64,000 nucleotides of DNA, from assembly GCA_007375535.1 (NCBI GenBank), contig VMEM01000002.1, positions 20,265-84,264 of the forward strand, written 5' to 3'. Positions 4,782 to 50,507 of the stretch are shown here, piece by piece. The translations under genes and the position numbers were made by a program. Below the pieces are notes generated by a model, which was not told where the DNA came from, searched no databases, and saw nothing but the letters and a program-made list of their open reading frames with translations. Position 1 is the stretch's first letter. Every line of letters starts with the position of its first letter. The DNA comes from Parcubacteria group bacterium LiPW_41 (lineage in GTDB: Bacteria > Patescibacteriota > Minisyncoccia > UBA6257 > GWB1-50-10).

Positions 4782-5444
4782 ATGCTTACGGAGAAAAATA
4801 GAAGAGAAAAAGAGTTACAAAAAAGAGCAATAAAAATAATTAAAGCACTTACTTGTATGTATCCACATGCGAAGGTTTTTCTTAATTATTCAAATCCATT
4901 TGAACTTCTTGTGGCGGTAATGCTTTCAGCACAATGCACCGACAAAAAAGTTAATGAGGTTACTGAAAAATTATTTAAAAAATATAAAACGATTGACGAT
5001 TACGTGAAGGCGGGGAGAGCAGAAAAAACGGTTCTAGTGTTTGAGAACGACATAAGACAAACTGGTTTTTTTCGAGTAAAAGCAAAGCATATTTTATTAG
5101 TTGCAAAAATTATTCAAGAAAAATATAAAGGAATGATTCCTGATAATATGGAAGAACTAACAGCTCTTCCTGGAGTTGGAAGAAAAACTGCAAATATTAT
5201 TTTAGAGTCAGCGTTTGGTATTGTGGTTGGAATTCCGGTTGATACGCACGTGTTTAGACTTGCTCATAGATTCGGTCTTTCAAAACAAAAAACACCCGAT
5301 GGCGTTGAGAAAGATTTGTGTAGAATAATACCAAAACGATATTGGGCTGGGCTTTCATATAAGCTCATTTCGTATGGACGAGAGTATTGTCCTGCGAGAG
5401 CGCACGATCATGCATTGTGTCCACTTTCTAAAATTGGGGTATAA
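4782..5444 (+). CDS. nth: endonuclease III (HhH-GPD DNA glycosylase/lyase)
   Basis: HhH motif LPGVGRKTANII and a C-terminal 4Fe-4S cluster loop C-x6-C-x2-C-x5-C (CPARAHDHALCPL). Confidence 0.8.
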   Translation: MLTEKNRREKELQKRAIKIIKALTCMYPHAKVFLNYSNPFELLVAVMLSAQCTDKKVNEVTEKLFKKYKTIDDYVKAGRAEKTVLVFENDIRQTGFFRVKAKHILLVAKIIQEKYKGMIPDNMEELTALPGVGRKTANIILESAFGIVVGIPVDTHVFRLAHRFGLSKQKTPDGVEKDLCRIIPKRYWAGLSYKLISYGREYCPARAHDHALCPLSKIGV

Positions 5445-5451
5445 TTGATAT

Positions 5452-6354
5452 ATGAAAAAGCCACACGTTGTTGTCCTTGGAATGGGAGAAATAGGGACAG
5501 TTTTGTTTTCCTTGGTAAAAAAGCGTGGATATTCTATTGAGGCGTGGGATAAGGTTCCACAAAAGGTTCCTCATCAGAAATCATTATTTGAAATCATTCC
5601 AAAAGCTGACATATTGTTTTTGTGTATTCCGTCTTGGAATTTACCAAATGTTGTAAAGTCTATTGGTCCGTTTATCCACAAACAAACGATTATTGTGGGG
5701 CTCGCAAAGGGTTTGCAAGCAACAAAAGAGACTCCATATACGTTTCTATCGAATTCGTTTCCTCACAATGAAGTGGTGATGCTTGGTGGCGCAATGCTTG
5801 CCGAAGAGGTTGCACTTGGAATGCCTGGTATTGCAGTTTTTGCAGGGAAAAAAGAAAGTGCACGCGTTTTAGTTAAAGATTGTTTTAAAAATACTAATGT
5901 TGTCTCTTTTGAGTCAAAGGATCCAGAGGTGAATTCTTTTTTGAGTATTTTAAAAAATGTTTATGCTTTAGGTCTTGGAATAGGAGATGGAATTGGGTGG
6001 GGTGGAAATGGGAGAGCTCTTCTTGCTCTTGAGGCATTAAAGGAAATGGAATTATTGTGTTCACTAAAAGGAATTAAGAAAGATCTTGTGTATGGGCAGT
6101 CTGGTTTTGTTGATCTTATTGCTACAGGATTTAGTGTGTATTCAAAAAATGTTGAAGTAGGAAAACTTATTGTTTCAACAAAAAAGACGCTACCAAATAG
6201 TGAGGGTCTTGTATCACTTGAGCCACTTAAGAAAATTATTGGGAGTTCTTCTTCGTTTCCTCTATTTAATGCCATTTATCAAGCGGCACTAAGGAAAGAA
6301 AAAGCAGGCGTGATTTTTTCTCGTTATATTAAAAAAATTCAACAGAAGGGGTAA
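5452..6354 (+). CDS. gpsA: NAD(P)H-dependent glycerol-3-phosphate dehydrogenase
   Basis: N-terminal Rossmann fold (VVVLGMGEIGT). Blocks AKGLQ, LGGAMLAEEVALGMPG, KNVYALGLGIGDGIGWGGNGRALL and GFVDLIATG align to conserved GpsA blocks. Confidence 0.7.
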   Translation: MKKPHVVVLGMGEIGTVLFSLVKKRGYSIEAWDKVPQKVPHQKSLFEIIPKADILFLCIPSWNLPNVVKSIGPFIHKQTIIVGLAKGLQATKETPYTFLSNSFPHNEVVMLGGAMLAEEVALGMPGIAVFAGKKESARVLVKDCFKNTNVVSFESKDPEVNSFLSILKNVYALGLGIGDGIGWGGNGRALLALEALKEMELLCSLKGIKKDLVYGQSGFVDLIATGFSVYSKNVEVGKLIVSTKKTLPNSEGLVSLEPLKKIIGSSSSFPLFNAIYQAALRKEKAGVIFSRYIKKIQQKG

Positions 6355-6360: not shown

Positions 6361-7455
6361 ATGAGGATTGTATCTCATCTTGATATGGATGCTTTTTTTT
6401 CGGCGATCGAAGAAAGGGATAATTTACGTTTTAGAAATCGTCCCATTGTTGTTGGTTCTGATCCACAAGGTGGACGTGGGAGAGGTGTTGTTTCTACCGC
6501 AAATTATAAGGCAAGAGAATATGGAATTCGTTCAGCTCTTCCTATATCTCTTGCATGGGAATATTCTCAGCGAGCAGTGGCGCAAGGCAGAGAGGCGGTA
6601 TTATTTTTAGGCGTGGATATGGAAAAATATGAGCGAGTTTCTATAAACATTCGGAAGATTGTTGAATCTTTTGGATATGATTTTGAGCAGGCCTCGGTCG
6701 ATGAATTTTACATTGATTGCTCTCGTTGCGAAACATATAAAAATGCAGAGCGTTTATTGGGGAGAATAAAAAGTGAAATTTTAAAAAAAGAATCACTTTC
6801 CTGTTCTATTGGAATTGGTCCGAACAAGCTTATTGCAAAAATTGCATCTGACATAAAAAAACCAAATGGGCTTACTATAGTTCATAGAGAAGAGGTAAAT
6901 TCATTCCTTTTTTCAATGGCTGTTTCAAAAATTCCTGGTATTGGTCCAAAATCCGTTGAGGAGTTGTTAAAATTGGGAATAAAAACAGTTGGAGAATTAC
7001 AAAACATCTCTTGTGAAGATTTAGAGAAGAGGTTTGGAAAGTCTGGGGTGCAAATGTATAAGAAGTCACATGGAGTGGATGATGAGGCGGTGATAGAGTC
7101 TCAAGAAGTAAAATCAATTGGATCACAGGAAACTTTTTCTAAAGACACACGAGATGCAAAAGAAATTATTTCAATGGTAGAGAAACTTGTTTTTTCGACA
7201 TATGAGAGATTTATAGATTCATCTTTTGTTTCTTTTTCTCGTATCTCGGTTTCTGTTCGTTTTTCTGATTTTTCTACCATACAACGATCCAAAACTCTCT
7301 CAGGTCCAATGTCGAAAAGAGTTGATTTAGAATTTTTGGCACTTCAAATGTTTCTCTCCTTTCTTGATTCTAGAGAAAATAAAAAAAGAAAGGCAGTGCG
7401 CCTTATTGGAATTAGATTGGAAAAGCTCAACAGTCAGAGGAATTTATTTCTCTAA
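6361..7455 (+). CDS. dinB: DNA polymerase IV (Y-family)
   Basis: MRIVSHLDMDAFFSAIEERDNLRFRNRPIVVG is the canonical DinB/UmuC N-terminus, and a little-finger domain follows. Confidence 0.85.
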   Translation: MRIVSHLDMDAFFSAIEERDNLRFRNRPIVVGSDPQGGRGRGVVSTANYKAREYGIRSALPISLAWEYSQRAVAQGREAVLFLGVDMEKYERVSINIRKIVESFGYDFEQASVDEFYIDCSRCETYKNAERLLGRIKSEILKKESLSCSIGIGPNKLIAKIASDIKKPNGLTIVHREEVNSFLFSMAVSKIPGIGPKSVEELLKLGIKTVGELQNISCEDLEKRFGKSGVQMYKKSHGVDDEAVIESQEVKSIGSQETFSKDTRDAKEIISMVEKLVFSTYERFIDSSFVSFSRISVSVRFSDFSTIQRSKTLSGPMSKRVDLEFLALQMFLSFLDSRENKKRKAVRLIGIRLEKLNSQRNLFL

Positions 7456-8048: not shown

Positions 8049-9424
8049 TATTCGTGATATGAGTGTGTTTTGTCTAGGTTCTTAAAGCTTACCTTTTCTG
8101 GATCCCATCCCAGAGTTACTGAGCCAACTGGGCCATTACGGTGTTTTGCAATGATAACTTCAACGGTATTTTGGTCTTCGCTTGGTATGTCACTTCTTTC
8201 TCGTTCTTTTCTGTAAAGAAAGAGAACTACGTCAGCGTCTTGTTCCAAACTTCCTGATTCTCTGAGATCAGAGAGTCGGGGGATTTTAACATCTCTTTTG
8301 TCTACTTCTCGAGAGAGCTGTGAAAGCGCTAAAACTGGAACATTTAATTCGCGAGCGAGAGCTTTTATTGATCGTGAAATTTCAGTTACTTGTTGAACCA
8401 TATTGTCGGTGTTGGTTCGCGATCGAATAAGCTGTAGGTAGTCAATAACAATAAGATCAAGACCGTGTTCAAGTTGAAGACGACGCGCTGCGGAACGCAT
8501 TTCAAGCATTGTTGGAGATGGTGTATCTACTATGTGTATATTTATTTTTGAGAGTTCATCGAGGGCTTGTTGGACAAGTGCGAATTCTAAATCATCATTT
8601 AACCTTCCAGTACGAAGCCTCCATAGTGGGACTTGAGCTTGCCCAGCAATAATACGATCAACAATTTGATCGCGAGACATTTCGATTGAGAATATTCCTA
8701 CTGAGTGTCCACCGAGAGCAACCTGACGTGCTACGTCGAGAGCGAATGATGTTTTACCAACTGATGGACGCGCACCAAGTATTATCATGTCTGATGGCTG
8801 GAATCCAGAGAGAAGTTTATCAAGGTCTATAAAATGTGTTGGAACACCACGGACAGCGCTTTGCCCGCCACGATGAAGTTTTTCAAGGCGTTCGAATGCG
8901 CCAGGAAGTTCGTCTTTTATGTGTATAAATTTTTGAGGGCGTGATTTTTGTGAAATTCCAAAAATTCGCTGCTCTACTCCATCAAGTAATGATTCGAAAT
9001 CGGCACTATCAAATGCTTCTTCATTTATAACCGAAGAGGCGTCAATGATTTGGCGACGAATATGTTTTTCTTTTACTATTTGTGCGTAGTGAGCAATGTG
9101 AGCAGAAGAGGGGACGCGGGAGATAAGCTCGGTAAGATAATCCGTTCCTCCAATGTCCTTAAAAACTTTTTTGTTTTTTAATTTATTTGAAACAGTGAGA
9201 ATATCAATTGGTTCGCTGTTTTCAAACAACTCAACGATTGCTTCATAAATTTTTTGGTGTCCAGGATGATAGAAATCACTTGAATCAAGTTGATCTGCAA
9301 TTTTCAAAATAGCGTTTTTATCAATCATCAAAGATCCAAGTACTGAAACCTCCGCATCAAGATCTTGAGGTGGTATTTTTGCGATTGTTTGGCGTAGTGG
9401 TTTTATCGTCATAATTTGATACAC
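8048..9424 (-). CDS. dnaB: replicative DNA helicase
   Basis: DnaB N-terminal domain plus a RecA-like fold with Walker A GARPSVGKTSFAL and the H2/H3 motifs. Confidence 0.9.
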   Translation of the reverse strand: MYQIMTIKPLRQTIAKIPPQDLDAEVSVLGSLMIDKNAILKIADQLDSSDFYHPGHQKIYEAIVELFENSEPIDILTVSNKLKNKKVFKDIGGTDYLTELISRVPSSAHIAHYAQIVKEKHIRRQIIDASSVINEEAFDSADFESLLDGVEQRIFGISQKSRPQKFIHIKDELPGAFERLEKLHRGGQSAVRGVPTHFIDLDKLLSGFQPSDMIILGARPSVGKTSFALDVARQVALGGHSVGIFSIEMSRDQIVDRIIAGQAQVPLWRLRTGRLNDDLEFALVQQALDELSKINIHIVDTPSPTMLEMRSAARRLQLEHGLDLIVIDYLQLIRSRTNTDNMVQQVTEISRSIKALARELNVPVLALSQLSREVDKRDVKIPRLSDLRESGSLEQDADVVLFLYRKERERSDIPSEDQNTVEVIIAKHRNGPVGSVTLGWDPEKVSFKNLDKTHSYHE

Positions 9425-10902
9425 ACCTTTTTCCTCACAAACGGTCCAATCGGGGTGTCTTCTATACTGTATCCTAATGTATCTATTTGTTTTCTCAAGG
9501 TGTCGGCGGGGGTAAACTGTTTATTACTCCTGCATAACTCACGTTTCTCTACTATTTTTGTTATTGATGATGGAATTTTCTCTTCTTCTATCTCAATTCC
9601 TAGTATTTTTAGGCTTGTTTTGATTGTCTTTTTTGCGCGGCGAGCGGTTGCTGGGGAGAGTTTCCAGGTGATTGAACGAATAGAATTTGTGTACTTAAAC
9701 AATGCCGCAATGGCTTCCGGAGTGTTAAGGTCGTCGTTCATTGCTTCTTCAAATTCTTTTTTTAGTATATCTTCAATATTTTTAACAGATTTATCTGTCT
9801 CTTTATTTATTTTTATTTTTTTATTTTCTATAAAAGAAAGAGCGTCGAGGAGACTAGTAAAGGTGTCAATTGCGGTATACGCCTGAGTGATAAGTGAGTC
9901 ACTCCATTGAATTGGAGATCGATAGTGGTGTGAAGTGATTATAAAACGAAGTATATTTTTTGAATGAATATGAAGAAAGTCTTTAATTGTGAAAAAGTTT
10001 CCTAAACTTTTTGACATTTTTTCTCCATTTATTCGCAACGATCCTGTATGAAGCCAAATTTTAACAAACGGGATTTTTCCTGATGCTGATTCTTGTTGTG
10101 CAATTTCTGCTTCGTGATGTGGAAATTTCAAATCTCCACCTCCTCCGTGGATATCATACTGCGGTCCAAACCATCGTTCTGTTATTGCAGTGTCTTCGAT
10201 GTGCCATCCTGGACGGCCCCATCCCAATTTTGTATTCCATGCTGGTTCGCCATTTACGATGACGAATTTTTTCTTCTTGTCTTTTTCTTCTACTTTCACT
10301 TCCTTCCAAAGAGCAAAATCTCCTTTGTTTCTCTTTTCTATTTGTTCATCAATTCGTGTAACTGCATCTTCTGCTTGGGTTATAGTTCTTCGAGAAAGTT
10401 TTCCGTATTCTTTAAATGTTGTTATATCAAAATAGTATCCCTGACCACTAATGTAGTATGCATTTCCTTTTGTTATTAGCGTCTGTATTTGATTTTCTAT
10501 CTCCTTTATATGGTCGGTTGCTCGGGCGTATCGATTTACTGATATGCACCCAATCGCCTTCATATCATTTTTATAGAGTGATTCAAATTTCCATGCATAA
10601 CGAAGTGGATTCTCATCGTGCATTCTTGCGCGGTCAATAATTTTATCATCTACATCAGTGATGTTTTGCAAATAAACCATTTTCCATTTCTTTGAACGAA
10701 TGAACCGTGCAAAAACATCAAACGCAATATATGTTCGAGCGTGTCCAATATGTGAGTAATCAAACACGGTTGGTCCACAAACAAAAAAATGCAATGGATT
10801 TTTTTGCGAATATAGAACTTCTTCTTTTTGTCCCGAAAGTGAATTTAAAAGTCTCATTGCGTATATGAGAGCATTATATAGTGAGTAGGCAACAACGTAC
10901 AA
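9409..10902 (-). CDS. cysS: cysteine--tRNA ligase
   Basis: Class I HIGH motif (HIGHARTY) and KMSKS motif (KMSKSLGN). Confidence 0.9.
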   Translation of the reverse strand: MYVVAYSLYNALIYAMRLLNSLSGQKEEVLYSQKNPLHFFVCGPTVFDYSHIGHARTYIAFDVFARFIRSKKWKMVYLQNITDVDDKIIDRARMHDENPLRYAWKFESLYKNDMKAIGCISVNRYARATDHIKEIENQIQTLITKGNAYYISGQGYYFDITTFKEYGKLSRRTITQAEDAVTRIDEQIEKRNKGDFALWKEVKVEEKDKKKKFVIVNGEPAWNTKLGWGRPGWHIEDTAITERWFGPQYDIHGGGGDLKFPHHEAEIAQQESASGKIPFVKIWLHTGSLRINGEKMSKSLGNFFTIKDFLHIHSKNILRFIITSHHYRSPIQWSDSLITQAYTAIDTFTSLLDALSFIENKKIKINKETDKSVKNIEDILKKEFEEAMNDDLNTPEAIAALFKYTNSIRSITWKLSPATARRAKKTIKTSLKILGIEIEEEKIPSSITKIVEKRELCRSNKQFTPADTLRKQIDTLGYSIEDTPIGPFVRKKVCIKL

Positions 10903-37659: not shown

Positions 37660-39150
<1,491 letters not shown>

Positions 39151-39391
39151 ACACTTAAGTCGTAAAAAACTTTAATTTTTTAAAATGATGTGTATAACAG
39201 TTCGCTGTACGCGATCAATCGAGTAATCGAGGAAATCAACGCAGAAGGAATGATGCATACTATCGAGAGGTGTTAGCCGATAAACCTCAAATATGTCTCG
39301 GCTACGAATATGGTAAATGTCTAATTGGTTTATTATGTTCGGTGGGACGACCAAGAAAGTACTTGAAATGAATTTATTTTTATCTTTAATA

Positions 39392-39471: not shown

Positions 39472-39861
39472 ATGGCTGGAAAAACGATACTTATTGTAGA
39501 AGACGAATCTTTGCTTGGAAATTTATTGAAACAGAGGTTGGAACATGAAGGATTTACTGTAATTTGGTGTAAAGATGGAGAAGAGGCGGTTAATGTACTC
39601 CGATCAAAAAAACCTGATCTTATTTTGCTTGATCTTATTTTGCCAAAAATCTCTGGATTTGAATTATTGGAGACAATGCAAGCAGATCCTCAACTTGAGC
39701 GCGCTCCTGTTATTATTACCTCAAATCTTGGACAAGACAGCGATGTTGCTCGTGGGCAATCACTTGGTGCGATTGAATATTTTGTAAAAGCAAAAGTTTC
39801 AATTGAAGAATTAGTTGATCACGTAAAAACAATGGTCGCAAATTTGCCAGTAAATTCATAA
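39472..39861 (+). CDS. single-domain response regulator (CheY/PilH-like receiver)
   Basis: ILIVEDE...DLILLDLILP...K with the conserved D-D-D-K positions and no output domain. It lies adjacent to the pilus genes. Confidence 0.75.
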   Translation: MAGKTILIVEDESLLGNLLKQRLEHEGFTVIWCKDGEEAVNVLRSKKPDLILLDLILPKISGFELLETMQADPQLERAPVIITSNLGQDSDVARGQSLGAIEYFVKAKVSIEELVDHVKTMVANLPVNS

Positions 39862-39879
39862 ATTTGTTATTATAGTCAG

Positions 39880-40473
39880 ATGAAACGTGGTTTCACTCTT
39901 ATTGAACTCCTAGTAGTAATAGCTATATTAGCAATTCTCGCTACTGTTATCGTTGTTATCATCAACCCTGGTGAACTATTAAAGCAAGCACGAGACACTA
40001 CTCGTATTTCTGATCTTGCAGCAATAAACAGTGCAATAGCATTGTATCTATCGGATGTAACTACCCCATATTTGAAAAATGGTGCTGCCTGTACTGCAGG
40101 AACACACTATGGAACTGTTGTGCCTTCTCCAGCTACATCAACTCCATTTGCTGTTGCAGGAAGTGTTGCTGCTGCGACCGGTGTAACAACTTCAGTTTCT
40201 GGAGCTGGTTGGGTAAGTGTTAACTTCACTTCGATCTCATCAGGTTCTCCTCTTGCTCGTCTTCCAATGGATCCACAAAATACTCAGACTTATTACTATG
40301 CCTATGGATGTGGAACTGGAACATTAAATGGCGATCTTAGTTACGAAGTGAATGCAAAAATGGAGAGTACGAAGTATGGAAGTTCATCAAGTACTGCAAA
40401 CGTTGTCTCAAATGTAAAAGATGGTGGAGACAATGCAACGTGGTACGAAATTGGAAACAATCTAACTCAGTAG
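39880..40473 (+). CDS. type IV pilin (prepilin N-terminal methylation/cleavage motif), paralog A
   Basis: MKRGFTLIELLVVIAILAILA is a class III signal (G|FTLIEL, Glu5). The C-terminus has a Cys pair. Confidence 0.8.
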   Translation: MKRGFTLIELLVVIAILAILATVIVVIINPGELLKQARDTTRISDLAAINSAIALYLSDVTTPYLKNGAACTAGTHYGTVVPSPATSTPFAVAGSVAAATGVTTSVSGAGWVSVNFTSISSGSPLARLPMDPQNTQTYYYAYGCGTGTLNGDLSYEVNAKMESTKYGSSSSTANVVSNVKDGGDNATWYEIGNNLTQ

Positions 40474-40524
40474 ATTTGTATAAAAAGGTCTGTCTGATAT
40501 AATAAACAAAAGTTTAAATAAACT

Positions 40525-41109
40525 ATGAAAAAAGGTTTTACCCTCATTGAATTGCTTGTTGTTATTGCGATCCTTGCAATTCTCGCTACTGTTATCGTCG
40601 TTATCATCAACCCTGGTGAATTGTTAAAGCAAGCACGAGACACTACTCGTATCTCTGATCTTGCAGCAATAAACAGTGCAATTGCATTGTATCTATCAGA
40701 TGTAACTACCCCATATTTGAAAAATGGTGCTGCCTGTACTGCAGGAACGCACTATGGAACAGTGGCAGTTTCTACATCGACTCCATTTGCTGTTGCGGGA
40801 AACGTTCTTGCTGCGACCGGTGTAACAACTTCAGTTTCTGGAGCTGGTTGGGTAAGTGTTAACTTCACCTCGATCTCATCAGGTTCTCCTCTTGCTCGTC
40901 TTCCAATGGATCCACAAAATACCACCACATATTACTATGCCTATGGATGTGGAACTGGAACATTAAATGGCGATCTTAGTTATGAAGTGAATGCAAAGAT
41001 GGAGAGTACAAAGTATAGCGCGGGTGGAGGAGGAGATGTTGTCTCAAATGTAAAAGATGGTGGAGACAATGCAACGTGGTACGAAATTGGAAACAATCTA
41101 ACTCAGTAA
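40525..41109 (+). CDS. type IV pilin, paralog B (about 93% identical to A)
   Basis: Same leader and about 80 identical N-terminal residues. It differs in two short patches (PSPATSTP/SSSSTAN versus AVSTST/AGGGGD). Confidence 0.8.
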   Translation: MKKGFTLIELLVVIAILAILATVIVVIINPGELLKQARDTTRISDLAAINSAIALYLSDVTTPYLKNGAACTAGTHYGTVAVSTSTPFAVAGNVLAATGVTTSVSGAGWVSVNFTSISSGSPLARLPMDPQNTTTYYYAYGCGTGTLNGDLSYEVNAKMESTKYSAGGGGDVVSNVKDGGDNATWYEIGNNLTQ

Positions 41110-41111
41110 AA

Positions 41112-41138
41112 AAGAAAAACTCCTTCGGGAGTTTTTTA
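41112..41138 (+). terminator. rho-independent terminator
   Basis: aaactcc-ttcg-ggagtttttt. Confidence 0.7.
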
Positions 41139-41189
41139 ATACATGATTCAAATTATAAAAGTAAGAAAAATGTATGGTAGAATTATAAA

Positions 41190-41285
41190 GAAGTGCAAAG
41201 TGCAAACTTCAAAGTGCAAAAGTTAAACTAAAAGCGTTTTAACTTCATTTTTGAGATTTGCGTTTTGAGATTTGAATTTGTTACA
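41190..41285 (+). promoter_or_regulatory. direct-repeat cluster upstream of pilB (candidate regulator binding sites)
   Basis: Three copies of agtgcaaa (aagtgcaaagtgcaaacttcaaagtgcaaaag), two copies of ttttgagatttg, and the hairpin agttaaa...tttaact. Confidence 0.35.
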
Positions 41286-41287
41286 TA

Positions 41288-43006
41288 ATGATTAATCTAC
41301 CAGGAGAAAAATTAAGAGAATTATTGCTCCGTGCAGGAATTGTGAATACTGAGACATTCTCAGTTATTCAGGAAGAGGCAACGCGAAAACGGCAGAATTT
41401 GAGTGATCTTCTTATTTCTCAAGGGATTATAAATAAAGAATACCTTTTAATCCTCATCGCTCAATTTCTTGGGGTTGAGCGTATCAATCTTGGAGTAACC
41501 AAAATTGATGAAACGGTGCTTAATTTATTACCAGAAGATGTTGCTCGTAGGAGAAAGGTGATTGTATTTGGAAAGGAGCCAGATGGAAGATTTAAGGTTG
41601 CGATGGATGATCCAAGTGATTTGGAAACTATTGATTTTCTTTCATTAAAATTAGCAGGAAAGATAAAGCCATATCTTGCGACGGAAGAAGATTTAAATAG
41701 AGGATTCACTGCGTATGGGAAGAAAATCACGCAGGATTTTAAAAAAATAATTGAAGAAAGCGTTCGCGAATCCCTAAAGTCAAAAGCACGTGGAGATATT
41801 GCCACCCAAGGTGCTGAAGACCTTCCTATTGTTGCGGTAGTGGACAATCTTTTGTCATATGCAGTTTCGTCTCGTGCATCTGATGCTCATTTTGAAATTC
41901 TTGATGATTCAATTCTTGTTCGATTTCGTATTGATGGAATTTTACATGAAATTATTAGAATGCCAAAGGAAATTCATCCCGCGGTTATTGCTCGATTGAA
42001 AATTCTTTCGAGTTTGCGCGTTGATGAACATCGTGCACCACAAGATGGACGATTCAGATATAAAATTGGTGGCACCTCTGTTGATATTCGTGTTTCCATT
42101 CTCCCGACATTTTATGGCGAAAAAGTTGTTATGCGTATTTTGAGTGGAGCACAAAAACCAGTTTCACTTGCTGACCTTGGAGTATTTGAATCCGATATTC
42201 ATATCATTGAAGAAGCAATAAAAAAGACATATGGAATGGTGCTTGCGTGTGGGCCAACTGGATCAGGAAAAACAACAACATTGTATTCAATTTTGAATAT
42301 GTTGAATAAACCTGAGGTAAATATTATTACCGTTGAAGATCCAATTGAATATGACATGAGATATGTGAATCAGGTGCAGGTGAATAACGCCGCAGGAATC
42401 ACGTTTGCATCAGGGCTTCGTTCAATACTTCGTCAAGATCCAAATATTGTTATGGTGGGAGAAATTCGTGATGGTGAAACGGCAAACATTGCGGTTCAAG
42501 CTGCACTTACTGGGCACTTGGTATTGTCGTCTTTGCACACCAACGATGCACCAACAACTATTCCACGTTTTATTGATATGGGTGTTCCTCCGTTTCTTAT
42601 TTCTGCGGTGTTGAATACCGTCGTTGCACAACGTCTTGTGCGAAAAATTCACCTGAATTGTATTGAGTCATACGAACCAGATGAGGTGACACTTACTGCA
42701 ATACAACGCGAACTTCTTCTTTTGGGAGTTGATCCAAAAAGTATAAAGCTTCCAAAAACATTTTACCGTGGGAAAGGATGCAGTGGATGTAATTTTGTGG
42801 GAACTATCGGACGTATAGGAATTTATGAGGTATTAAATATTACTGAATCCATACGCAAACTTATTATGGATGGATCATTCAGTATGGATATGTTAAAAAT
42901 GCAAGCACAAAAAGAGGGGATGATAACAATGTTTGAAGACGGACTTCGAAAAGTAGAACGAGGAACAACAACGATTGAGGAGGTTATGCGCGTTATACGG
43001 GAATAA
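41288..43006 (+). CDS. pilB: type IV pilus assembly ATPase PilB (GspE family)
   Basis: N-terminal GSPII domains, Walker A GPTGSGKTTT, Asp box, His box, and a tetracysteine motif (CSGC...). Confidence 0.9.
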   Translation: MINLPGEKLRELLLRAGIVNTETFSVIQEEATRKRQNLSDLLISQGIINKEYLLILIAQFLGVERINLGVTKIDETVLNLLPEDVARRRKVIVFGKEPDGRFKVAMDDPSDLETIDFLSLKLAGKIKPYLATEEDLNRGFTAYGKKITQDFKKIIEESVRESLKSKARGDIATQGAEDLPIVAVVDNLLSYAVSSRASDAHFEILDDSILVRFRIDGILHEIIRMPKEIHPAVIARLKILSSLRVDEHRAPQDGRFRYKIGGTSVDIRVSILPTFYGEKVVMRILSGAQKPVSLADLGVFESDIHIIEEAIKKTYGMVLACGPTGSGKTTTLYSILNMLNKPEVNIITVEDPIEYDMRYVNQVQVNNAAGITFASGLRSILRQDPNIVMVGEIRDGETANIAVQAALTGHLVLSSLHTNDAPTTIPRFIDMGVPPFLISAVLNTVVAQRLVRKIHLNCIESYEPDEVTLTAIQRELLLLGVDPKSIKLPKTFYRGKGCSGCNFVGTIGRIGIYEVLNITESIRKLIMDGSFSMDMLKMQAQKEGMITMFEDGLRKVERGTTTIEEVMRVIRE

Positions 43007-43041
43007 GATCACAACAAATTTTTAGTGTAAAATAAAAAAGG

Positions 43042-44247
43042 ATGAAATTTCATTACATTGCATCACAACAAGATGGCCGGGTAATTGAGGGGGACGTGGA
43101 CGCGGTAAGCGTGCAGGCGGTACTTACGTATCTTTCAACAAATAATTTAAAGCCAGTAAGCGTTAAGATTATTGAAGAGCGAAAAAAAGAAATTGAGATT
43201 TTTAAAGCGCGAGTTACTATAACTGATCAGATATTTCTTACAAAATATCTTGCGTTGATGTTAAAAATCGGTACTGGTCTTTTGGAGGCAGTAAATATTC
43301 TTATCGCTGATTTTACGAAACAGGCAATCAGAGATATTTTATATGAGATTCGTTCTTCGCTTGAACAAGGACAACCATTTTATACAACGTTTGCCCGTCA
43401 CCCAAAGGTGTTTTCAAATGTATATACCAATCTTGTAAAAGCAGGGGAAGCGTCGGGAAATTTAGAAAAAATATTTCAGGACCTCACTATTGTTCTTACT
43501 AAAGAAAAAGAATTGCGCGACCAGATGAAGAGTGCTCTTGTGTATCCTGTGCTTCTTCTCATTGGTGCGGTGCTTATTCTTATGTTTTTGGTTATGTTTG
43601 CACTTCCAAAAATTGCAAAAGTGTTTATGGATTCAGGATTTGAGCCACCTGCATTTTCAAAAGCAGTATTTGCCGTTGGATTCTTTTTTGGAAAATTTGG
43701 TTTTTATTTTATTGGACTTGCGATTGTCGCCGGAATTGTTGGAGTTGTGTTCTATAGGAGTTCTATTTTCTTTCAAAGATTTATCAAAAATCTTTTTGCT
43801 GGACTCCCATTAATCAAGAATGTGGTGCACAAAATGGCGCTACAGCGATTTGCATCGACCCTTGCTTCTCTTATCAAAGCGGGCATGCCACTTACTGAAG
43901 CGTTGAAGATTACATCAGATGCAGTAGCAAACCAGGCGGTGGGAGATGCGTTAATTCGTATTGCAGATCAAGGACTTGCAAAAGGACTTACCATTGGTGA
44001 AGCGTTTCGTCGCGAACCAGTGTTTCCACAGACAATTTCAAATCTTGTAGCAATTTCTGAACGTGCAGGACACTTGGACGAAGTGTTGGAAACACTCGGA
44101 GAGTTCTATGCAAAAGAAATTGATTCTTCAATTAAGGAGCTTGTTTCATTCCTTGAACCAGCATTGTTGTTGTTTATTGGTGTGATCATTGGTGTCATTG
44201 CACTTGCAATTATTGTTCCAATTTATCAACTTACAACACAATTTTAA
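43042..44247 (+). CDS. pilC: type IV pilus platform protein PilC (GspF family)
   Basis: Two GspF repeats and three TM helices. Confidence 0.85.
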   Translation: MKFHYIASQQDGRVIEGDVDAVSVQAVLTYLSTNNLKPVSVKIIEERKKEIEIFKARVTITDQIFLTKYLALMLKIGTGLLEAVNILIADFTKQAIRDILYEIRSSLEQGQPFYTTFARHPKVFSNVYTNLVKAGEASGNLEKIFQDLTIVLTKEKELRDQMKSALVYPVLLLIGAVLILMFLVMFALPKIAKVFMDSGFEPPAFSKAVFAVGFFFGKFGFYFIGLAIVAGIVGVVFYRSSIFFQRFIKNLFAGLPLIKNVVHKMALQRFASTLASLIKAGMPLTEALKITSDAVANQAVGDALIRIADQGLAKGLTIGEAFRREPVFPQTISNLVAISERAGHLDEVLETLGEFYAKEIDSSIKELVSFLEPALLLFIGVIIGVIALAIIVPIYQLTTQF

Positions 44248-44296
44248 AAATTTTATAATTTTTAATTTCCAATTTTTAAACAAATCCAAAATTCTA

Positions 44297-45451
44297 ATGT
44301 TTAAAACATTACTTACAAAATTCAAAAATTACAAAATTCAAAAATTACCAGAACGTTTCGCACGTTCTGGTTTTACCATGATTGAGCTCATGGTGGTTAT
44401 TGCGATTGTGGTTTCTCTTTCTGTTACTTCTTTTATCGCGTTTTCAAACGTTTCAAGTTCTAAAGCGGTAAAAAATGGACTTGATGAAATGGAAGCATTA
44501 ATTACGGCGGCACGAAGAAAATCAATATCACAAGAAAATGGTGCTCGTTGGGGTGTACGAACGGAGAATACAACAACATCGAAACGCATGGTGTTGTTTA
44601 GTGGTGTGTCATATGCATCAGGAACTCCGTCGAACTATTATTCGTTAAAAAGAAATGTAGTGTTCACTAATCCTGTTGCTTCAACCACCTATGATGTTTT
44701 GTTTGATCCAATTACGGGGTTTCTTTCCGAAAAGAAAGTAATAACTGTTGCAACATTAAAAAGAGATGGAATTGTTGGTGATTTAGTATTAAACACTATT
44801 GGGGCAGTAACCAAACGATATGATTATGGGGTGGTGGGATATTGGCATTTTGATGAGGGAACAGGAACGATTGCCTATGATGCATCAGGAAGGGGAAATA
44901 ATGGGACACTTACTAATGGTCCTACGTGGCAGGTAAGTACAAATTGTAAAGCTGGGATGTGTTTGAATTTTGATGGAACTGATGATTATATTTCAACCTC
45001 TTCTATTCCAAATTTGACTAGTGAATTTAGTTTCTCTGTTTGGGCAAAAACTCCCATTTTACAAGATTCAACTTACGATACGATAATCTCAAAGTTTTCT
45101 TCGTCCCCATATAATGGTTGGTTTTTGAGGCATAGTCCAAATACTAATGCAATTTATTTTTCTTTTTATAATGCTGGATCTTCATATTCAGTTTCTACTT
45201 CTGCACTTACCGCAAACACCTGGATTCATTATGTGGGTACCTTTGATGGGTCAAATATGAAACTCTATACTAATGGTCTTTTGTCTGGTACTCAGGTTGG
45301 GTCTGTTGGATCTGCAACAACAAATTTTGCTATTGGTGGTAATTACGGGGGACCATCAGAAACCTGGAATGGTTCTATAGACGAGGTTCGTGTTTATAAT
45401 CGTGCATTGTCTGCAAGTGAGATTTTAGCGATGTATAATGACCTTAAGTAA
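44297..45451 (+). CDS. minor pilin-like protein: long leader, prepilin motif and a C-terminal LamG/ConA-like jelly-roll
   Basis: The 25-aa K/I-rich leader ends ...RSG|FTMIELMVVIAIV. The C-terminus carries WHFDEGTGTIAYDASGRGNNGTL...LNFDGTDDYIS...IDEVRVYNRALSASEI, a LamG-like pattern. Confidence 0.7.
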   Translation: MFKTLLTKFKNYKIQKLPERFARSGFTMIELMVVIAIVVSLSVTSFIAFSNVSSSKAVKNGLDEMEALITAARRKSISQENGARWGVRTENTTTSKRMVLFSGVSYASGTPSNYYSLKRNVVFTNPVASTTYDVLFDPITGFLSEKKVITVATLKRDGIVGDLVLNTIGAVTKRYDYGVVGYWHFDEGTGTIAYDASGRGNNGTLTNGPTWQVSTNCKAGMCLNFDGTDDYISTSSIPNLTSEFSFSVWAKTPILQDSTYDTIISKFSSSPYNGWFLRHSPNTNAIYFSFYNAGSSYSVSTSALTANTWIHYVGTFDGSNMKLYTNGLLSGTQVGSVGSATTNFAIGGNYGGPSETWNGSIDEVRVYNRALSASEILAMYNDLK

Positions 45452-45560
45452 ATTTCAATTTACAAATTTCAAATTTCAATTTAATTTTCCAATGACCCAA
45501 TTTCAAAATTTATTCATTTATGCATTCATTTAAAATTTTAAATTTAAAACTTAAAATTCT
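45452..45560 (+). repeat. ~105 bp AT-rich repeat element, copy 1 (overlaps the start of the gene at 45520)
   Basis: atttcaatttacaaatttcaaatttcaatttaatt..ccaatgacccaattt..aaaattt..aaatttaaaacttaaaatt; shared by copies 2 and 3. Confidence 0.6.
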
Positions 45561-46833
45561 TCTGCAAAGCAGAAGTGGTCAATCTTTGGCGGAAGTAATG
45601 ATTGGTCTTGCGATTGGTGCAATCTTGATTGGTGCTGCCTCGTTTGCAATTACCACTACACTGAAAACAAATCTAACTACTCAGCGTTCACAGTTTGCAG
45701 CAAATGCTGCGCAAGAAACAATTGAGCGTGTTCGTGCGTTCGCATCTTCTGATTGGCAAAATATTTATGGACTTACAAAAGGGTCATCAACGCAATATTA
45801 TTTTGTTGCGACAGGAACACAGTTTTTTGTAAATCAAGGAAAGGAGGGAGTTGTAGAGAATGATATTCGTAGTGGCTTGGTTGGTCAGTGGGGATTTGAC
45901 GAGGCCACAGGAACGGTTGCGTATGATATGACGGGGAATAGGAATAATACAAATTTTTCTGGTAGCATTGTTCGTGCTACAACAACATGTAAAATTGGTA
46001 ATTGTGTTGGGCTTGATGGAGCTAGTGATTCTTATATAAGTAGTAGTAATAATATGTCACCGACCTCAAGTCAGACATATTCCATATGGATTAAACCTAA
46101 TGTTTTGAGTGGTTTGGTTGGTATCTTTACGACACATAACTATGTCTTAACATCAAATATTGGGATAAATTTAACGAATGATAGATTATCCATATCTATT
46201 GGATATACAGATGGGACAAGAGAATTCAGCACAAAATTAAGTAATTTTTTGTTATCGACAAATAGTTGGACTCACGTTGTTCTTATATATAACGCTACAG
46301 ATAATTCTGTTAGTTTTTATGTAAACGGTACGTATGATAGTAGGTGGGCGTTAGCAAAGACTGTCAAATTTACCTCAGAGAAAGTACTTTTTGGTCAGTG
46401 GTCATATGTATATTTAGGCAACTACAGATTTAATGGATCTATTGATGACGCTCGTATTTATAATCGTGCACTTTCTGCTGATGAGGTGAAACAGCTTTAT
46501 AACAGTGCAACATATACTCGTTATTTTTATGTTGAAAATGGATGCAGGACAAATGATGCGTCGAGTACATATTCCGGGGTTAGTCCTTGTGGTGGTGGAT
46601 CTGTTGATGATCCATCAAGTCAGAAAATAAGTTCTGTTGTTCAATGGGGAACAGGAGGAACTGGACAGATTATACTTGCAGATATTTTGACACGATGGAA
46701 AAATGCGATCTTTCAACAAAGTGATTGGTCGGGAGGAGTTTCAGAAAATGTATTAATCAATTCAGGAACGACATTTGCGTCTTCATCAAACGTAAACTCT
46801 GGAGGAGGAAGCCTAAGAATCAACGGACTCTAG
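45520..46833 (+). CDS. minor pilin-like protein 2: long leader, prepilin-like motif and LamG-like domain
   Basis: ...QSRSG|QSLAEVMIGLAIGAILIGA (Glu at +5); then WGFDEATGTVAYDMTGNRNN...GLDGASDSYIS...IDDARIYNRALSADEV. Confidence 0.6.
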   Translation: MHSFKILNLKLKILLQSRSGQSLAEVMIGLAIGAILIGAASFAITTTLKTNLTTQRSQFAANAAQETIERVRAFASSDWQNIYGLTKGSSTQYYFVATGTQFFVNQGKEGVVENDIRSGLVGQWGFDEATGTVAYDMTGNRNNTNFSGSIVRATTTCKIGNCVGLDGASDSYISSSNNMSPTSSQTYSIWIKPNVLSGLVGIFTTHNYVLTSNIGINLTNDRLSISIGYTDGTREFSTKLSNFLLSTNSWTHVVLIYNATDNSVSFYVNGTYDSRWALAKTVKFTSEKVLFGQWSYVYLGNYRFNGSIDDARIYNRALSADEVKQLYNSATYTRYFYVENGCRTNDASSTYSGVSPCGGGSVDDPSSQKISSVVQWGTGGTGQIILADILTRWKNAIFQQSDWSGGVSENVLINSGTTFASSSNVNSGGGSLRINGL

Positions 46834-46962
46834 ACAATTTTAATTTACAAATTTTAAATTTCAATTTAATGCTTCAATGACTCAATTTTAAAATTTATTC
46901 ACTTAGAAATTCAATTAAAATTTGAAATTTAAAACTTAGAATTTATCAGGTATAATGAATCT
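46834..46962 (+). repeat. ~105 bp AT-rich repeat element, copy 2, ending in GGTATAAT 6 nt before the ATG
   Basis: See copy 1. The terminal ggtataat-gaatct-ATG indicates a promoter for a leaderless transcript. Confidence 0.6.
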
Positions 46963-47367
46963 ATGGAAACTCGGAATTACAGTGAAGCACTAAATGAGGG
47001 GTACAAACGACTTCATGCACAAATTGAGGTAGAACGTGCGAAACCTGAGAATGCGGAAATTCAGGAACGAGATATCGTTAAAAAATCAGTAGTTGGGGTT
47101 GTTCAATCAATAAAATCAACACAACCAGCAGAAGAAAAGAAAGAGGAGAAGCCGGTTGAACTTCATGTTATTCCGGAATATGCCGAAAGAGAACCAGAGA
47201 TATTAAGAAAAGAAATTGAAGTACTTGTTGAATCTGCGGCAAACAGCGGTCTTGAACAAGCGGTCCGGGAATCATTAAAGCATTCGTCATTTGTACAAGA
47301 TGCATTTCATGATGCATTGGTTGACAAGCTGATTCCAGAAATGAAGAAGAGAGGAATTCTGAAATAA
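46963..47367 (+). CDS. hypothetical acidic helical protein
   Basis: 134 aa with no recognisable motif, lying between two repeat copies in the pilus locus. Confidence 0.4.
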   Translation: METRNYSEALNEGYKRLHAQIEVERAKPENAEIQERDIVKKSVVGVVQSIKSTQPAEEKKEEKPVELHVIPEYAEREPEILRKEIEVLVESAANSGLEQAVRESLKHSSFVQDAFHDALVDKLIPEMKKRGILK

Positions 47368-47469
47368 TTTCAATTTACAAATTTTAAATTTCAATTTAAT
47401 TCTCCAATGACCAAATTTAAAATTTTTACATTCAATTAAAATTTGAAATTTAGAACTTAAAATTTATCC
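47368..47469 (+). repeat. ~105 bp AT-rich repeat element, copy 3
   Basis: Near-identical to copy 2 through ...ttcaattaaaatttgaaatttagaacttaaaatttatcc-ATG. Confidence 0.6.
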
Positions 47470-49842
47470 ATGGCTTCCTTCATTATTTTTATCTCAATTC
47501 TAGTTGCTGCCATTATTGGTGTTGGGTTGTTTTTTCTTTGGAAAAACAAAATTAAGAAAGCACTTGTTGAGCAGCTTTCGATGAAGTTGTTTTTGATAAA
47601 GCTTCCAAGAGAATCAAAAGAGGGAAGAGAGTTGAAAAAAGAAATAAGCATTTCTGAACAGCTTATTGCTGCGCTTGCCTCATTTAAAAAACCGTTTGCG
47701 TTTGAAGTTGCAGTTCCGCACGTGGGAGAAGAAATTCATTTTTATATTTCAGTTCCACAAGTTGCAGGAGAAGCAGTTGCGAGACAAATTCAAGCACTTT
47801 GGAAAGATGCAGATGTGATTCCGGTAGATGACTACAATATTTTTAATCCCGCGGGTGCGGTTTCAGCATTTTCACTCTCACAACGTGATTATTACGTTGT
47901 TCCGCTTCGCACGTATCAAGAATTTGAATCAGATACATTTCTCTCTGTTCTAGGTGGTCTTGCACAGATAAATGAAGTTGGAGAGGGGTGTGCAATTCAA
48001 TACATTGTTCGTCCCGCAGATAGATCAGCAAAGAAAAATATTCAGAAAGCAATTGAAGAGTTGCGAAAAGGAAGAAAAGCAAAGGATGTAATTTATACAA
48101 AAAATAATGGAGACCTTTCATTTAAAGAAATTGGAGAGATAGCGGTAAAAGGAAGTGAAGCAATTGATAAAAAAGACGAAAAGAGTGTTGATGAGCATGC
48201 GGTAAAAATGCTTGAAGGGAAAATATCAAAACCATTATTTTTGGTAAATGTGCGAGTTGTTGCGTCTGCCCCAAGTGAACCACAAGCAAGAGCAATTACT
48301 GATGGAGTTGCTGCTGGGTTTGCACAATTTACGTCCCCAGAACGAAATGAGATAACGGTTCGATATTATAAAAAACCTGAAGCGCTCGCTCATAAATTTA
48401 TTTTCAGAGAACATTCGAAGGATGAGGCTATGGTAATGAATTCCGAAGAACTCGCAAGTATTTTTCATTTACCAACTGCATTTACTGAGGTTTCACGGGT
48501 GAGCTATTTGAAATCGCGTGAAGCCCCACCTCCATCGGAAACTCCACGAGAAGGTCTTGTTATTGGTGAGAGTAGATTTCACGGAATGAAACGTGAGATT
48601 CGTTTGACTCGCGAAGATAGACGCAGGCATTTATATCTAATTGGACAAACCGGAACAGGAAAATCTGTATTTTTAAACAATGCTTCAGGACAGGATATTT
48701 TAAATGGAGATGGTGTTTGTCTTATTGATCCAAATGGAGATCTTTTTGAAGATGTATTAAATCGAGTTCCTGAATCACGTGCTAAGGATGTGATTGTCTT
48801 TGATCCATCGGACATGGACAGGCCACTTTCAGTGAACATGCTTGAGTATGATGCACGTTTTCCTGAACAAAAAACATTCATCATAAATGAACTGATGATG
48901 ATTTTTGATACGTTATATGATTTGAAAGCAACGGGTGGCCCTATGTTTGAACAGTATGCAAGGAATGCATTGTTGTTATTGATGGATGATCCAAGTGCTG
49001 GGTATACCATTTTGGAAATTCCTCGAGTGCTCTCCGACTCAAATTTCCGTGAAATGTTACTTTCAAAATGTACTAATCTTATTGCAAAAGATTTTTGGGA
49101 GAAGGAAGCAGAGCAGGCGGGAGGTGAGGCTTCGCTTCAAAATATGGTTCCTTACATCACTTCGAAATTTAGCACATTTATTGCAAATGATTACGTCCGC
49201 CCTATTATTGCTCAATCAAAGAGTTCTCTAGATTTTAGAAAAATTATGGATGAGGGAAAGATTTTACTCGTGAATCTTTCGAAAGGAAGAATTGGAGAGT
49301 TGAATGCGAGTTTGCTCGGAATGATCATTGTTGGGAAACTTACCATGGCGGCGTTTTCTCGTGCTGATATGGCGGATCGAGATGCACGTAGAGATTTCTA
49401 TTTATATATTGATGAGTTTCAGAATTTCACAACTCCTTCAATCTCAACTATTCTTTCTGAGGCAAGAAAATATCGATTGTGTCTTACTGTTGCACACCAA
49501 TTTATTGCGCAATTAAAGGATCCGATTCGTGATGCGATTTTTGAAAACGTTGGTTCAATGATCTCGTTCCGTATTGGTCCGAACGATGCAGAATTTCTCG
49601 AAAAACAATTTGCTCCAACGTTTAATAAAAATGATTTAATTAATGTTGATAACTTAAATGCGTATGCGAAGATAATCATCAATAATAAGATCTATCCTCC
49701 TTTTTCTTTGTTTGTTCCATTTCCTCCAAAAGGAATTGCGACGCGTGGAGCACAAATAAGAGAATATTCACGATTGATGTATGGAAGACCAAAAGCCGAC
49801 GTTGATGCAGAAATTTACTCTCGATTACGAGAATCTCGTTAA
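47470..49842 (+). CDS. membrane-anchored P-loop ATPase of the FtsK/HerA/TrwB(VirD4)-like superfamily
   Basis: N-terminal TM; Walker A YLIGQTGTGKSVFL about 30 aa before IDPNGD; Walker B LYIDEFQNF; then AHQ. About 790 aa in total. Confidence 0.55.
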   Translation: MASFIIFISILVAAIIGVGLFFLWKNKIKKALVEQLSMKLFLIKLPRESKEGRELKKEISISEQLIAALASFKKPFAFEVAVPHVGEEIHFYISVPQVAGEAVARQIQALWKDADVIPVDDYNIFNPAGAVSAFSLSQRDYYVVPLRTYQEFESDTFLSVLGGLAQINEVGEGCAIQYIVRPADRSAKKNIQKAIEELRKGRKAKDVIYTKNNGDLSFKEIGEIAVKGSEAIDKKDEKSVDEHAVKMLEGKISKPLFLVNVRVVASAPSEPQARAITDGVAAGFAQFTSPERNEITVRYYKKPEALAHKFIFREHSKDEAMVMNSEELASIFHLPTAFTEVSRVSYLKSREAPPPSETPREGLVIGESRFHGMKREIRLTREDRRRHLYLIGQTGTGKSVFLNNASGQDILNGDGVCLIDPNGDLFEDVLNRVPESRAKDVIVFDPSDMDRPLSVNMLEYDARFPEQKTFIINELMMIFDTLYDLKATGGPMFEQYARNALLLLMDDPSAGYTILEIPRVLSDSNFREMLLSKCTNLIAKDFWEKEAEQAGGEASLQNMVPYITSKFSTFIANDYVRPIIAQSKSSLDFRKIMDEGKILLVNLSKGRIGELNASLLGMIIVGKLTMAAFSRADMADRDARRDFYLYIDEFQNFTTPSISTILSEARKYRLCLTVAHQFIAQLKDPIRDAIFENVGSMISFRIGPNDAEFLEKQFAPTFNKNDLINVDNLNAYAKIIINNKIYPPFSLFVPFPPKGIATRGAQIREYSRLMYGRPKADVDAEIYSRLRESR

Positions 49843-49844
49843 TA

Positions 49845-50507
49845 ATGAAACCATTTCTTTCTATAGTTATTCCAGTTCAAGATGAGGGTGAGAGACTTTT
49901 GGATTTTTTACTTTCCCTTGATTATATGTTGTCGCTCTCTGAATTTTCGTATGAGTGTGTTTGTGTGTGTGCTCAAAAAAATGAAAATTCAAAGAAGGTG
50001 TGTGAAAAATTTTCTAAATTGGTGAAATATATGCGTGTGTGTGAGATAAAAGGAAATGGTGGATGGAGAGAGTTGTTTGGGGAGGGGATGAATTCTTCGA
50101 AGGGGAGTATTCGAATGTTTCTTGATCCTGGAGTGATTTCTGTGTTTAAAGATAGGGATAAAATATTAGAGCGACTCCGAGAGGGATACGAGTGTGTTAT
50201 TGCGGTTGATGAAGGAAAAGAAGAGGGGGAGTATGTGAGTCCAAATTCGATTCCAAGAATGATTGTATTCCGGGAAGAAATGCTTTCGCTTCTTGAAACA
50301 AAACACAATATTTCACATAATAGGCGTTCGCTATTTGTAGAAATTATTGGATTTTTATTAAAGAATAAAATTAAGGTATATGCGTTTCCGCTTTCGGCGA
50401 AGGAAGGAACAAAAGTAAAAGAAACAGTGATTGATAAGCTAATCAACAAAACAAAGTTGATGAAAGTAAAAAGAGAGCATAAGAAATTAAGAAAGAAAAT
50501 TGATTAA
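49845..50507 (+). CDS. glycosyltransferase family 2-like protein (divergent)
   Basis: The N-terminus LSIVIPVQDEGERL matches the GT2 SIVIPxYNE start; the rest is divergent. Confidence 0.4.
   Translation: MKPFLSIVIPVQDEGERLLDFLLSLDYMLSLSEFSYECVCVCAQKNENSKKVCEKFSKLVKYMRVCEIKGNGGWRELFGEGMNSSKGSIRMFLDPGVISVFKDRDKILERLREGYECVIAVDEGKEEGEYVSPNSIPRMIVFREEMLSLLETKHNISHNRRSLFVEIIGFLLKNKIKVYAFPLSAKEGTKVKETVIDKLINKTKLMKVKREHKKLRKKID

Follow-up and report, generated by a model that had tools for sequence, protein, structure and literature searches.

A type IV pilus cluster with two LamG-domain pilins beside a partner-associated VirB4/VirD4-superfamily ATPase, probably a separate module, in a Parcubacteria genome

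We analysed a 64,000-nt stretch of the genome of Parcubacteria group bacterium LiPW_41 (contig VMEM01000002.1 of assembly GCA_007375535.1, positions 20,265 to 84,264; hereafter the window), in which ten genes on the plus strand between positions 39472 and 50507 encode type IV pilus components followed by a small protein, a 790-residue ATPase and a diverged GT2-like protein. A preliminary description of this stretch, made from the sequence alone, had given the gene order as receiver, two pilins, PilB, PilC, two LamG-domain pilins, a hypothetical protein, the ATPase and the GT2-like gene, and had proposed that the products form a pilus-coupled apparatus for translocating DNA or protein. All ten genes were found where it had placed them (Table 1), with one correction: for the first LamG pilin gene (LamG1), the likeliest start codon is the ATG at 44297 rather than the TTG at 44189, from which the reading frame is also open and overlaps pilC. 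Domains were assigned by Pfam and NCBIfam scans, with the cut-offs of these collections as the threshold for family membership. Neighbour counts were taken within a radius of 10 kb in 80 GTDB species-representative loci carrying the ATPase, and eight closer relatives with ATPase identities of 55-88% were examined as well (L081, L083, L085, L086, L087, L088, L089 and L090, with L081 being 88% and L085 63% identical).

Table 1. Features of the pilus-ATPase locus and its surroundings; positions are those of the window unless another locus is named, and an arrow marks the prepilin cleavage site.
Feature	Position	Strand	Basis and remarks
16S rRNA gene, complete	37662-39155		Immediately 5' of the pilus locus, solitary
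Stand-alone CheY-like receiver, 129 aa	39472..39861	+	Pfam Response_reg, E 4.8e-23; first gene of the cluster
Major pilin A, 197 aa	39880..40473	+	N_methyl / IV_pilin_GFxxxE; signal MKRG↓FTLIE
Major pilin B, 194 aa	40525..41109	+	N_methyl
Terminator-like hairpin AAAAACTCCTTCGGGAGTTTTT	41115..41136	+	Palindrome scan; GC stem then T-run, directly 3' of pilin B
PilB-type extension ATPase, 572 aa	41288..43006	+	T2SSE, E 9e-123; N-terminal MshEN, E 6e-14
PilC platform protein, 401 aa	43042..44247	+	T2SSF, two copies, E 3e-48; NCBIfam GspF/PilC models also match
Modular minor pilin 1 (LamG1), 384 aa from ATG 44297	44297..45451	+	N_methyl and Laminin_G_3, E 4.9e-30
Modular minor pilin 2 (LamG2), 437 aa	45520..46833	+	N_methyl and Laminin_G_3, E 2.4e-23
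ATPase partner protein, 134 aa	46963..47367	+	Adjacent or fused homologues; C-terminal motif PF[VI]xDAFHDAL[VT]DKLxPELKKRG
VirB4/VirD4-superfamily ATPase, 790 aa	47470..49842	+	Pfam, PDB sequence searches, AlphaFold/Foldseek
Diverged GT2-like gene, 220 aa	49845..50507	+	Glycos_transf_2, E 9.5e-4, under the Pfam cut-off
Intergenic repeat copy 1	45451..45558		About 100 nt, AT-rich, heptamer units, internal inverted arms; before LamG2
Intergenic repeat copy 2	46836..46943		Upstream of the partner gene
Intergenic repeat copy 3	47366..47473		Between the partner gene and the ATPase gene
Heptamer arrays, window	41191-41279, 44249-44279, 45450-45558, 46836-46945, 47413-47466		
Heptamer arrays, L085 (positions in L085)	5649-5663, 6869-6942, 8180-8211		

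Judged from the domains that they encode, the first eight kilobases of the locus make up a type IVa-like pilus cluster of the kind normal in Patescibacteria, in line with the pilus core that had been recognised before. Four of the genes encode proteins with class III signals (G-1, a hydrophobic residue at +1 and E+5) that were matched by N_methyl or TIGR02532 and were also read directly from the sequence, and these are accompanied by PilB and PilC. PilB scored 544 bits against the TIGR02538 PilB model, under the equivalog cut-off. Its MshEN domain scored 52 bits; MshEN binds cyclic di-GMP in some PilB and MshE proteins, and no cyclic-di-GMP enzymes were noticed in the window. The stand-alone receiver gene occupies the same position in L081, L083, L085, L088 and L089. 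Pfam scans, a phmmer search of all six reading frames with PilB as query and a reading of the remaining translations identified no PilD, PilT or PilM/N/O/Q, no second T2SSE ATPase and no component of a type IV secretion system within the 64 kb. The absences listed in the preliminary description thus hold for the window, whereas its view of the assembly core as minimal cannot be judged from one window; pilus genes in Patescibacteria are dispersed across several loci (PMC11623550).

The two tandem major pilins, already described as nearly identical, share 94% of their residues and the leader MK[RK]G↓FTLIE, and relatives carry one, two or three such tandem copies. A promoter-like site precedes pilin A, with a -10 hexamer that ends 6 nt 5' of the ATG. 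The two genes show many synonymous differences in their first ~55 nt and are nearly identical thereafter (100% over the last 71 nt), and the amino-acid differences fall into two patches and a few scattered single residues, a pattern that suggests gene conversion with local diversification.

Both large minor pilins join a class III signal and a pilin moiety to a LamG/ConA-like module, with Laminin_G_3 above the cut-off in each, as the preliminary description had read them. In LamG1 a 25-residue leader, conserved in L081, is followed by G↓FTMIE, the pilin moiety and the C-terminal module; in LamG2 the signal G↓QSLAEV precedes a LamG module at residues 169-324 and a C-terminal extension of 110 residues. 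The leaders of 20-25 residues noted earlier are present here, and in all relatives examined they measure 13-35 residues and vary in sequence; the annotated LamG2 leader overlaps the first copy of an intergenic repeat, so that its start codon is uncertain. The LamG2 family is a small one of 463 clusters, all Patescibacteria by name. Assignment of the LamG pilins to the TafC family of fimbrial proteins was rejected, since the NCBIfam score lies far under the cut-off and the likeness to haloarchaeal Tat-fimbriae subunits is confined to the LamG domain.

Two described pili resemble this one most closely. Streptococcus sanguinis is an established case of both modular lectin pilins and tandem major pilins; its PilC is a modular pilin whose ConA-like lectin binds glycans (PMC9934059). 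The S. sanguinis pilus (PMC9934059, PMC8179133, PMC10628169) is likewise of monoderm type, with PilE1 and PilE2 both serving as major pilins, and in its large minor pilin, too, a ConA-like lectin module is grafted onto a class III signal and a short pilin moiety. It differs in that the locus studied here has two LamG-module pilins, lacks both a vWA pilin and a small PilA-like minor pilin, encodes leaders of 20-25 residues and has no PilD, PilT or PilM in the window; a sequence relationship is undetectable beyond the domains. The T4P-1 and T4P-2 systems of Nanosynbacter lyticus TM7x (PMC11623550) also belong to a Patescibacteria host and also have their genes split over several loci, and their PilX1 and PilX2 are tip minor pilins with a jelly-roll, lectin-like C-terminal domain implicated in host-glycan binding (PMC11623550). 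TM7x is a member of Saccharibacteria rather than Parcubacteria; the cleavage motifs here are the canonical G↓F and G↓Q, and the LamG modules are seen by Pfam, whereas the PilX1 domain was reported missing from NCBI CD-Search (PMC11623550). The pilus of LiPW_41 is a further member of the pilus type already described in S. sanguinis and Saccharibacteria. The most likely role of this pilus would be glycan-directed attachment to host cells, and the adhesin role suggested earlier for the two minor pilins is plausible. In such a pilus, the prepilins would be cut by a prepilin peptidase encoded elsewhere, PilB and PilC would polymerise one or both of the near-identical major pilins, and LamG1 and LamG2 would sit at the tip and present their predicted lectin modules to glycans of the host surface, while the CheY-like receiver may couple pilus assembly to some kinase.

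The ATPase downstream has the N-terminal hydrophobic helix, a predicted membrane anchor, and the motifs GQTGTGKS, IDPNGD and DEFQNF that the preliminary description had pointed out. Across 17 homologues, GQTGTGK, the D-P-G-D of IDPNGD and the D, E and both F of DEFQNF are invariant, and the Q and N of the latter are nearly so. Three Pfam families matched over their cut-offs, namely PF02534 (T4SS-DNA_transf, 29.4 bits against 20.1), PF12696 (TraG-D_C, 27.6 against 22) and PF10412 (TrwB_AAD_bind, 22.3 against 20.5), and in PDB sequence searches TrwB and DotL came out best, whether the query was the single sequence or a 17-sequence profile. The TraD and VirD4-like models of NCBIfam matched under their cut-offs, and all NCBIfam equivalog cut-offs were missed. 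The VirB4 model TIGR00929 reached 18.3 bits against a cut-off of 643 bits, and the Pfam VirB4 families (CagE_TrbE_VirB) did not match; neither did the FtsK_SpoIIIE and HerA families, with weak or faint DUF87 matches only in some relatives. By its domain matches, the C-terminal half groups with the type IV coupling proteins (T4CPs), the TrwB/VirD4 branch of the FtsK/HerA superfamily. The earlier description had named TrwB/VirD4 and HerA/FtsK together, and its family assignments largely stand: the TrwB/VirD4 affiliation is borne out, and the domain set of HerA or FtsK translocases (HAS barrel; FtsK multi-TM region and gamma domain) is not matched.

The full-length AlphaFold model (mean pLDDT 76) consists of one N-terminal transmembrane helix, an alpha/beta domain at residues ~37-345 and the ATPase domain, in which a helical region (residues ~465-595) lies between the Walker motifs. 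Foldseek placed TrwK/VirB4 at the top for this model (E 3e-13) and aligned TrwB over 439-468 columns with TM-scores of 0.48-0.58 on TrwB length; HerA and DndH structures were among the weaker matches, and HerA ranked under TrwB and VirB4. When the N-terminal domain was modelled alone (pLDDT 82, pTM 0.82), all PDB matches at E <= 0.001 were TrwK/VirB4 (14 chains, E 1e-7 to 6e-5), with modest TM-scores of 0.34-0.51. This domain of ~300 residues is DUF8128 (PF26449) in precomputed annotation, and a literature search for DUF8128 turned up no paper. Sequence and models together describe an ATPase in which a VirB4-like domain at the N-terminus is joined to a VirD4-like motor. As a side observation, locus L063 has, about 4 kb before the main ATPase gene, a second, partial paralogue (4468-5781, 36% identity).

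This architecture sets the protein apart from each of its structural relatives. It shares with the TrwB/VirD4 T4CPs (R388 TrwB, 1e9r and 1e9s; DotL, 6sz9) a predicted N-terminal anchor, the Walker A/B domain, the helical region between the Walker motifs and the TraG-D_C and TrwB_AAD_bind matches, and differs from them in the ~300-residue VirB4-like domain inserted between anchor and ATPase, in having a single transmembrane helix (and none in the fused forms described below), in its dedicated 134-residue partner and in the lack of a secretion system or relaxase nearby. With TrwK/VirB4 (R388; 7o42, 7o43 and 8rtd) it has in common the layout of an N-terminal domain plus an ATPase domain and the fold match of the former, whereas VirB4 sequence models barely match it and VirB3, VirB6 and VirB8 are not among its neighbours. 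The ATPase would most likely form a hexameric ring like TrwB and VirB4 and may use ATP to move or remodel a macromolecule at the inner face of the membrane.

Since the sequence matches are to conjugative coupling proteins, and HerA and DndH appear among the weaker structural ones, we considered whether the ATPase could be left over from a conjugative or integrative element, or be a defence ATPase of the HerA type, and have come to lie beside the pilus by chance. Such an origin is very improbable and was rejected in view of the housekeeping surroundings and of how strongly the family is conserved: it comprises more than 7,468 homologue clusters, keeps 53-66% identity across many genera and occurs in stable housekeeping contexts. 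Furthermore, there is no relaxase, integrase or nuclease partner in the window, and GC content is even throughout the region.

A different partner for the ATPase emerged from the gene directly upstream, which had been listed as hypothetical. Its 134-residue product is a helical protein that has no Pfam or PDB match, either by sequence or by family profile. A hidden Markov model (HMM) of this protein detected a homologue directly 5' of the ATPase gene in 30 of the 80 loci; in a further 39 its match (E 1e-12 to 1e-4) fell on the first ~130 residues of the ATPase polypeptide, which marks these 39 as fusions of the partner and ATPase genes. An N-terminal transmembrane helix was predicted in none of 38 fused proteins, compared with 39 of 41 unfused ones, indicating that in the fused forms the partner sequence replaces the membrane anchor. 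In the relatives with 55-66% ATPase identity the two genes are separated by only ~3-9 nt or overlap. In addition, a TATAAT box lies 6-8 nt before the ATG of the partner gene and is conserved in six genomes, which suggests that the partner-ATPase pair is transcribed separately, into an mRNA that is leaderless or nearly so. On this comparative evidence the real partner of the ATPase is the upstream 134-residue gene and no pilus gene, and its product may act as an adaptor or regulator of the ATPase. The pair is thus a module that is spread over Parcubacteria/Paceibacteria, has its own promoter-like box and is a single soluble polypeptide in a large clade.

The distribution of neighbouring genes bears directly on the proposed coupling of pilus and ATPase. 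PilB or PilC lies within 10 kb of the ATPase in only one of the 80 loci (L045), where the genes are arranged differently, and a LamG gene or pilin adjoins the ATPase in just two, L001 and L002. Members of the fused clade have L15-SecY-Adk-Map before the ATPase and Ndk after it. VirB4, VirB6, VirB8 and relaxase genes were found neither in the window nor as recurrent neighbours across the 80 loci. The pilus-ATPase order is confined to a clade with at least ~55% ATPase identity, in which, as the preliminary description would predict, it does recur: the full order receiver, pilin(s), PilB, PilC, LamG1, LamG2, partner and ATPase is found in L081, L083, L085 and L088. These four also retain L31 and the presumed 16S site (a gap without called genes there) on the 5' side and tpiA-ftsW-mltG-rpoBC on the 3' side. 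The adjacency is therefore real and old within one clade and is no property of the ATPase family. As the relatives that keep the order mostly retain the flanking housekeeping genes too, inherited synteny explains it better than functional coupling. On balance, we consider it rather probable that the locus holds two separate modules that stand side by side through lineage-specific conserved gene order, a lectin-tipped pilus and an independent partner-ATPase pair.

Several observations weigh against this separation and favour a single apparatus, in which the pilus would make contact with a host or with DNA through its LamG tip and the ATPase, membrane-anchored and T4CP-like, would pump DNA or protein across the membrane in coordination with the pilus. 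The order from the pilins to the ATPase is kept in six relatives, two of which (L086 and L089) have another downstream region, so that some of the linkage survives rearrangement. L087 and L090 have LamG pilin(s) beside the pair with PilB and PilC not within 10 kb, and in each of the eight relatives a LamG2-type pilin precedes the pair at a distance of 2 kb or less. Among the 120 best LamG2 homologues, 23 match one of the 120 best ATPase homologues in the size of the longest contig, which suggests that they share a contig with an ATPase homologue. Finally, an intergenic repeat precedes pilus genes and the pair alike (LamG2, partner and ATPase in the window; pilC and ATPase in L081) and could reflect shared regulation. 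A single apparatus nevertheless appears unlikely, because 79 of the 80 species-level loci have no PilB or PilC near the ATPase, in about half of the ATPase family the partner is fused on and the membrane anchor is missing, the pair carries a promoter-like box of its own, the window contains no channel component such as VirB6 or ComEC, and housekeeping genes on both sides are also kept in four of the six order-preserving relatives, as fits inherited synteny. The pilus-coupled translocator of the preliminary description is improbable, and in place of a pilus component it is the 134-residue protein that constantly accompanies the ATPase. Conserved synteny largely explains the adjacency, apart from a residual linkage between LamG pilins and the pair.

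What the ATPase of such an independent pair does may be approached through its orphan homologues. According to a recent survey of 3,035 Patescibacteria genomes, 2,918 carry VirD4-type homologues, which number 5,713, only 148 of them near virB4; VirB4 occurs in 2,417 genomes, and the authors cannot exclude exaptation of the VirD4-type homologues to other functions (Quinonero-Coronel et al. 2025, PMC12102498). The 790-residue ATPase is very probably one of the orphans among these 5,713 homologues, which lie on the chromosome away from virB4 and occur almost throughout the phylum. Neither the VirB4-like domain at the N-terminus nor the partner, adjacent or fused, nor the neighbourhood patterns described here are reported in the accessible text of the survey (PMC12102498). 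Within the two-module explanation our best guess, at low confidence, is that the ATPase is an orphan T4CP homologue that serves a chromosomal MPF-FATA-like type IV secretion system encoded elsewhere and is no dedicated part of a pilus. This secretion link is opposed by two further points from the same survey, namely that T4CP homologues occur in a larger number of genomes than VirB4 does, and that in Saccharibacteria (Southlakia) the VirD4-type homologue is non-essential and the secretion system essential (PMC12102498).

The commonest neighbours of the unfused pair point in another direction, toward polyprenol-sugar glycosylation. A PMT_2 (GT-C) gene often lies upstream on the opposite strand and a GtrA-GT2-GalT set downstream; of the ~40 unfused GTDB loci, at least 15 (L002-L006, L008, L009, L015, L017, L019, L029, L039, L059, L072 and L078) have PMT_2 and/or GtrA next to the pair, as do L086-L090. 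The ATPase and GtrA genes are 7-14 nt apart or overlap by 4 nt, and in L090 LamG pilins stand on both sides of the entire partner-ATPase-glycosylation block. The GT2-like gene at the end of the locus studied here is homologous to the clear GT2 genes of relatives and has FLDPG at the expected DxD site; it is probably an inactive, degenerate remnant of the GT2 in their GtrA-GT2-GalT set. These arrangements raise the question of whether the pair works with the glycosylation enzymes, energising or organising glycosylation or the export of a surface component, possibly including the pilins. We regard this as improbable, given that these neighbours are missing from all 38 fused loci, that we know of no glycosylation pathway with a VirB4/VirD4-type ATPase, that unrelated genes are packed in long co-directional strings in Patescibacteria (e.g., tpiA-ftsW-mltG-rpoB here), and that the lineage of the window kept the pair despite the loss of PMT_2, GtrA and GalT. 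An extension of the idea, limited to the Jorgensenbacteria-like clade that includes LiPW_41, would unite the LamG pilins, PMT_2/GtrA/GT2/GalT, the partner and the hybrid ATPase in one surface system. Such a union is likewise an outside prospect; if true, the ATPase would power the passage of a macromolecule, be it DNA, protein or a glycoconjugate, together with a lectin-guided pilus, in an undescribed hybrid of type IV pilus and secretion system.

The intergenic repeat mentioned above, of ~100 nt, occurs as three copies in successive spacers of the locus and nowhere else in the window, and its 21-mer core has five matches against 0.07 expected by chance. A degenerate copy lies at 44236-44267. 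In L081, copies are located at 5537-5565 (between pilB and pilC) and 9903-9983 (between partner and ATPase), and no repeat was found between the partner and ATPase genes in the 55-66% identical relatives. A role as a structured RNA is not supported, the weak AU hairpins being no better than shuffled controls (z = +0.15, -1.9 and +0.9). The element resembles an intergenic repeat that spreads locally or, alternatively, a shared regulatory site. As a separate observation, eight of the nine period-7 tandem arrays (>=3.7 copies) in the window fall in intergenic or 5' regions of this locus. L085 has heptamer arrays of different sequence at equivalent places, one of them within the LamG2 leader (ACTACTC x4.6), so that the periodicity is conserved between the two genomes and the sequence is not. 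Repeats of 7 bp upstream of adhesin genes regulate expression in Haemophilus, and by analogy phase-variable control by the heptamer arrays is possible.

The remainder of the window encodes housekeeping functions, including tpiA, ftsW/rodA, mltG, rpoB, rpoC, parAB, relA and dnaB, among others. No 23S rRNA gene accompanies the 16S rRNA gene within the 64 kb. In relatives, a stretch of 1.9-2.2 kb without called genes lies between L31 and the receiver gene, at the position of the 16S rRNA gene of the window.

The pilus provides a further example of lectin-tipped pili as a likely host-attachment device of episymbiotic Patescibacteria and is not new in kind. The comparison also carries a caution, in that gene adjacency is a poor guide to function in compact, strongly syntenic genomes. 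The main value of the locus lies in the orphan ATPase family rather than in the pilus. This family gains three handles, namely its VirB4-like/TrwB-like architecture, an obligate small partner that gene fusion reveals, and the existence of anchored and soluble states. Orphan coupling-protein homologues are present in almost every Patescibacteria genome (PMC12102498), and for this one family the three handles make the function testable.

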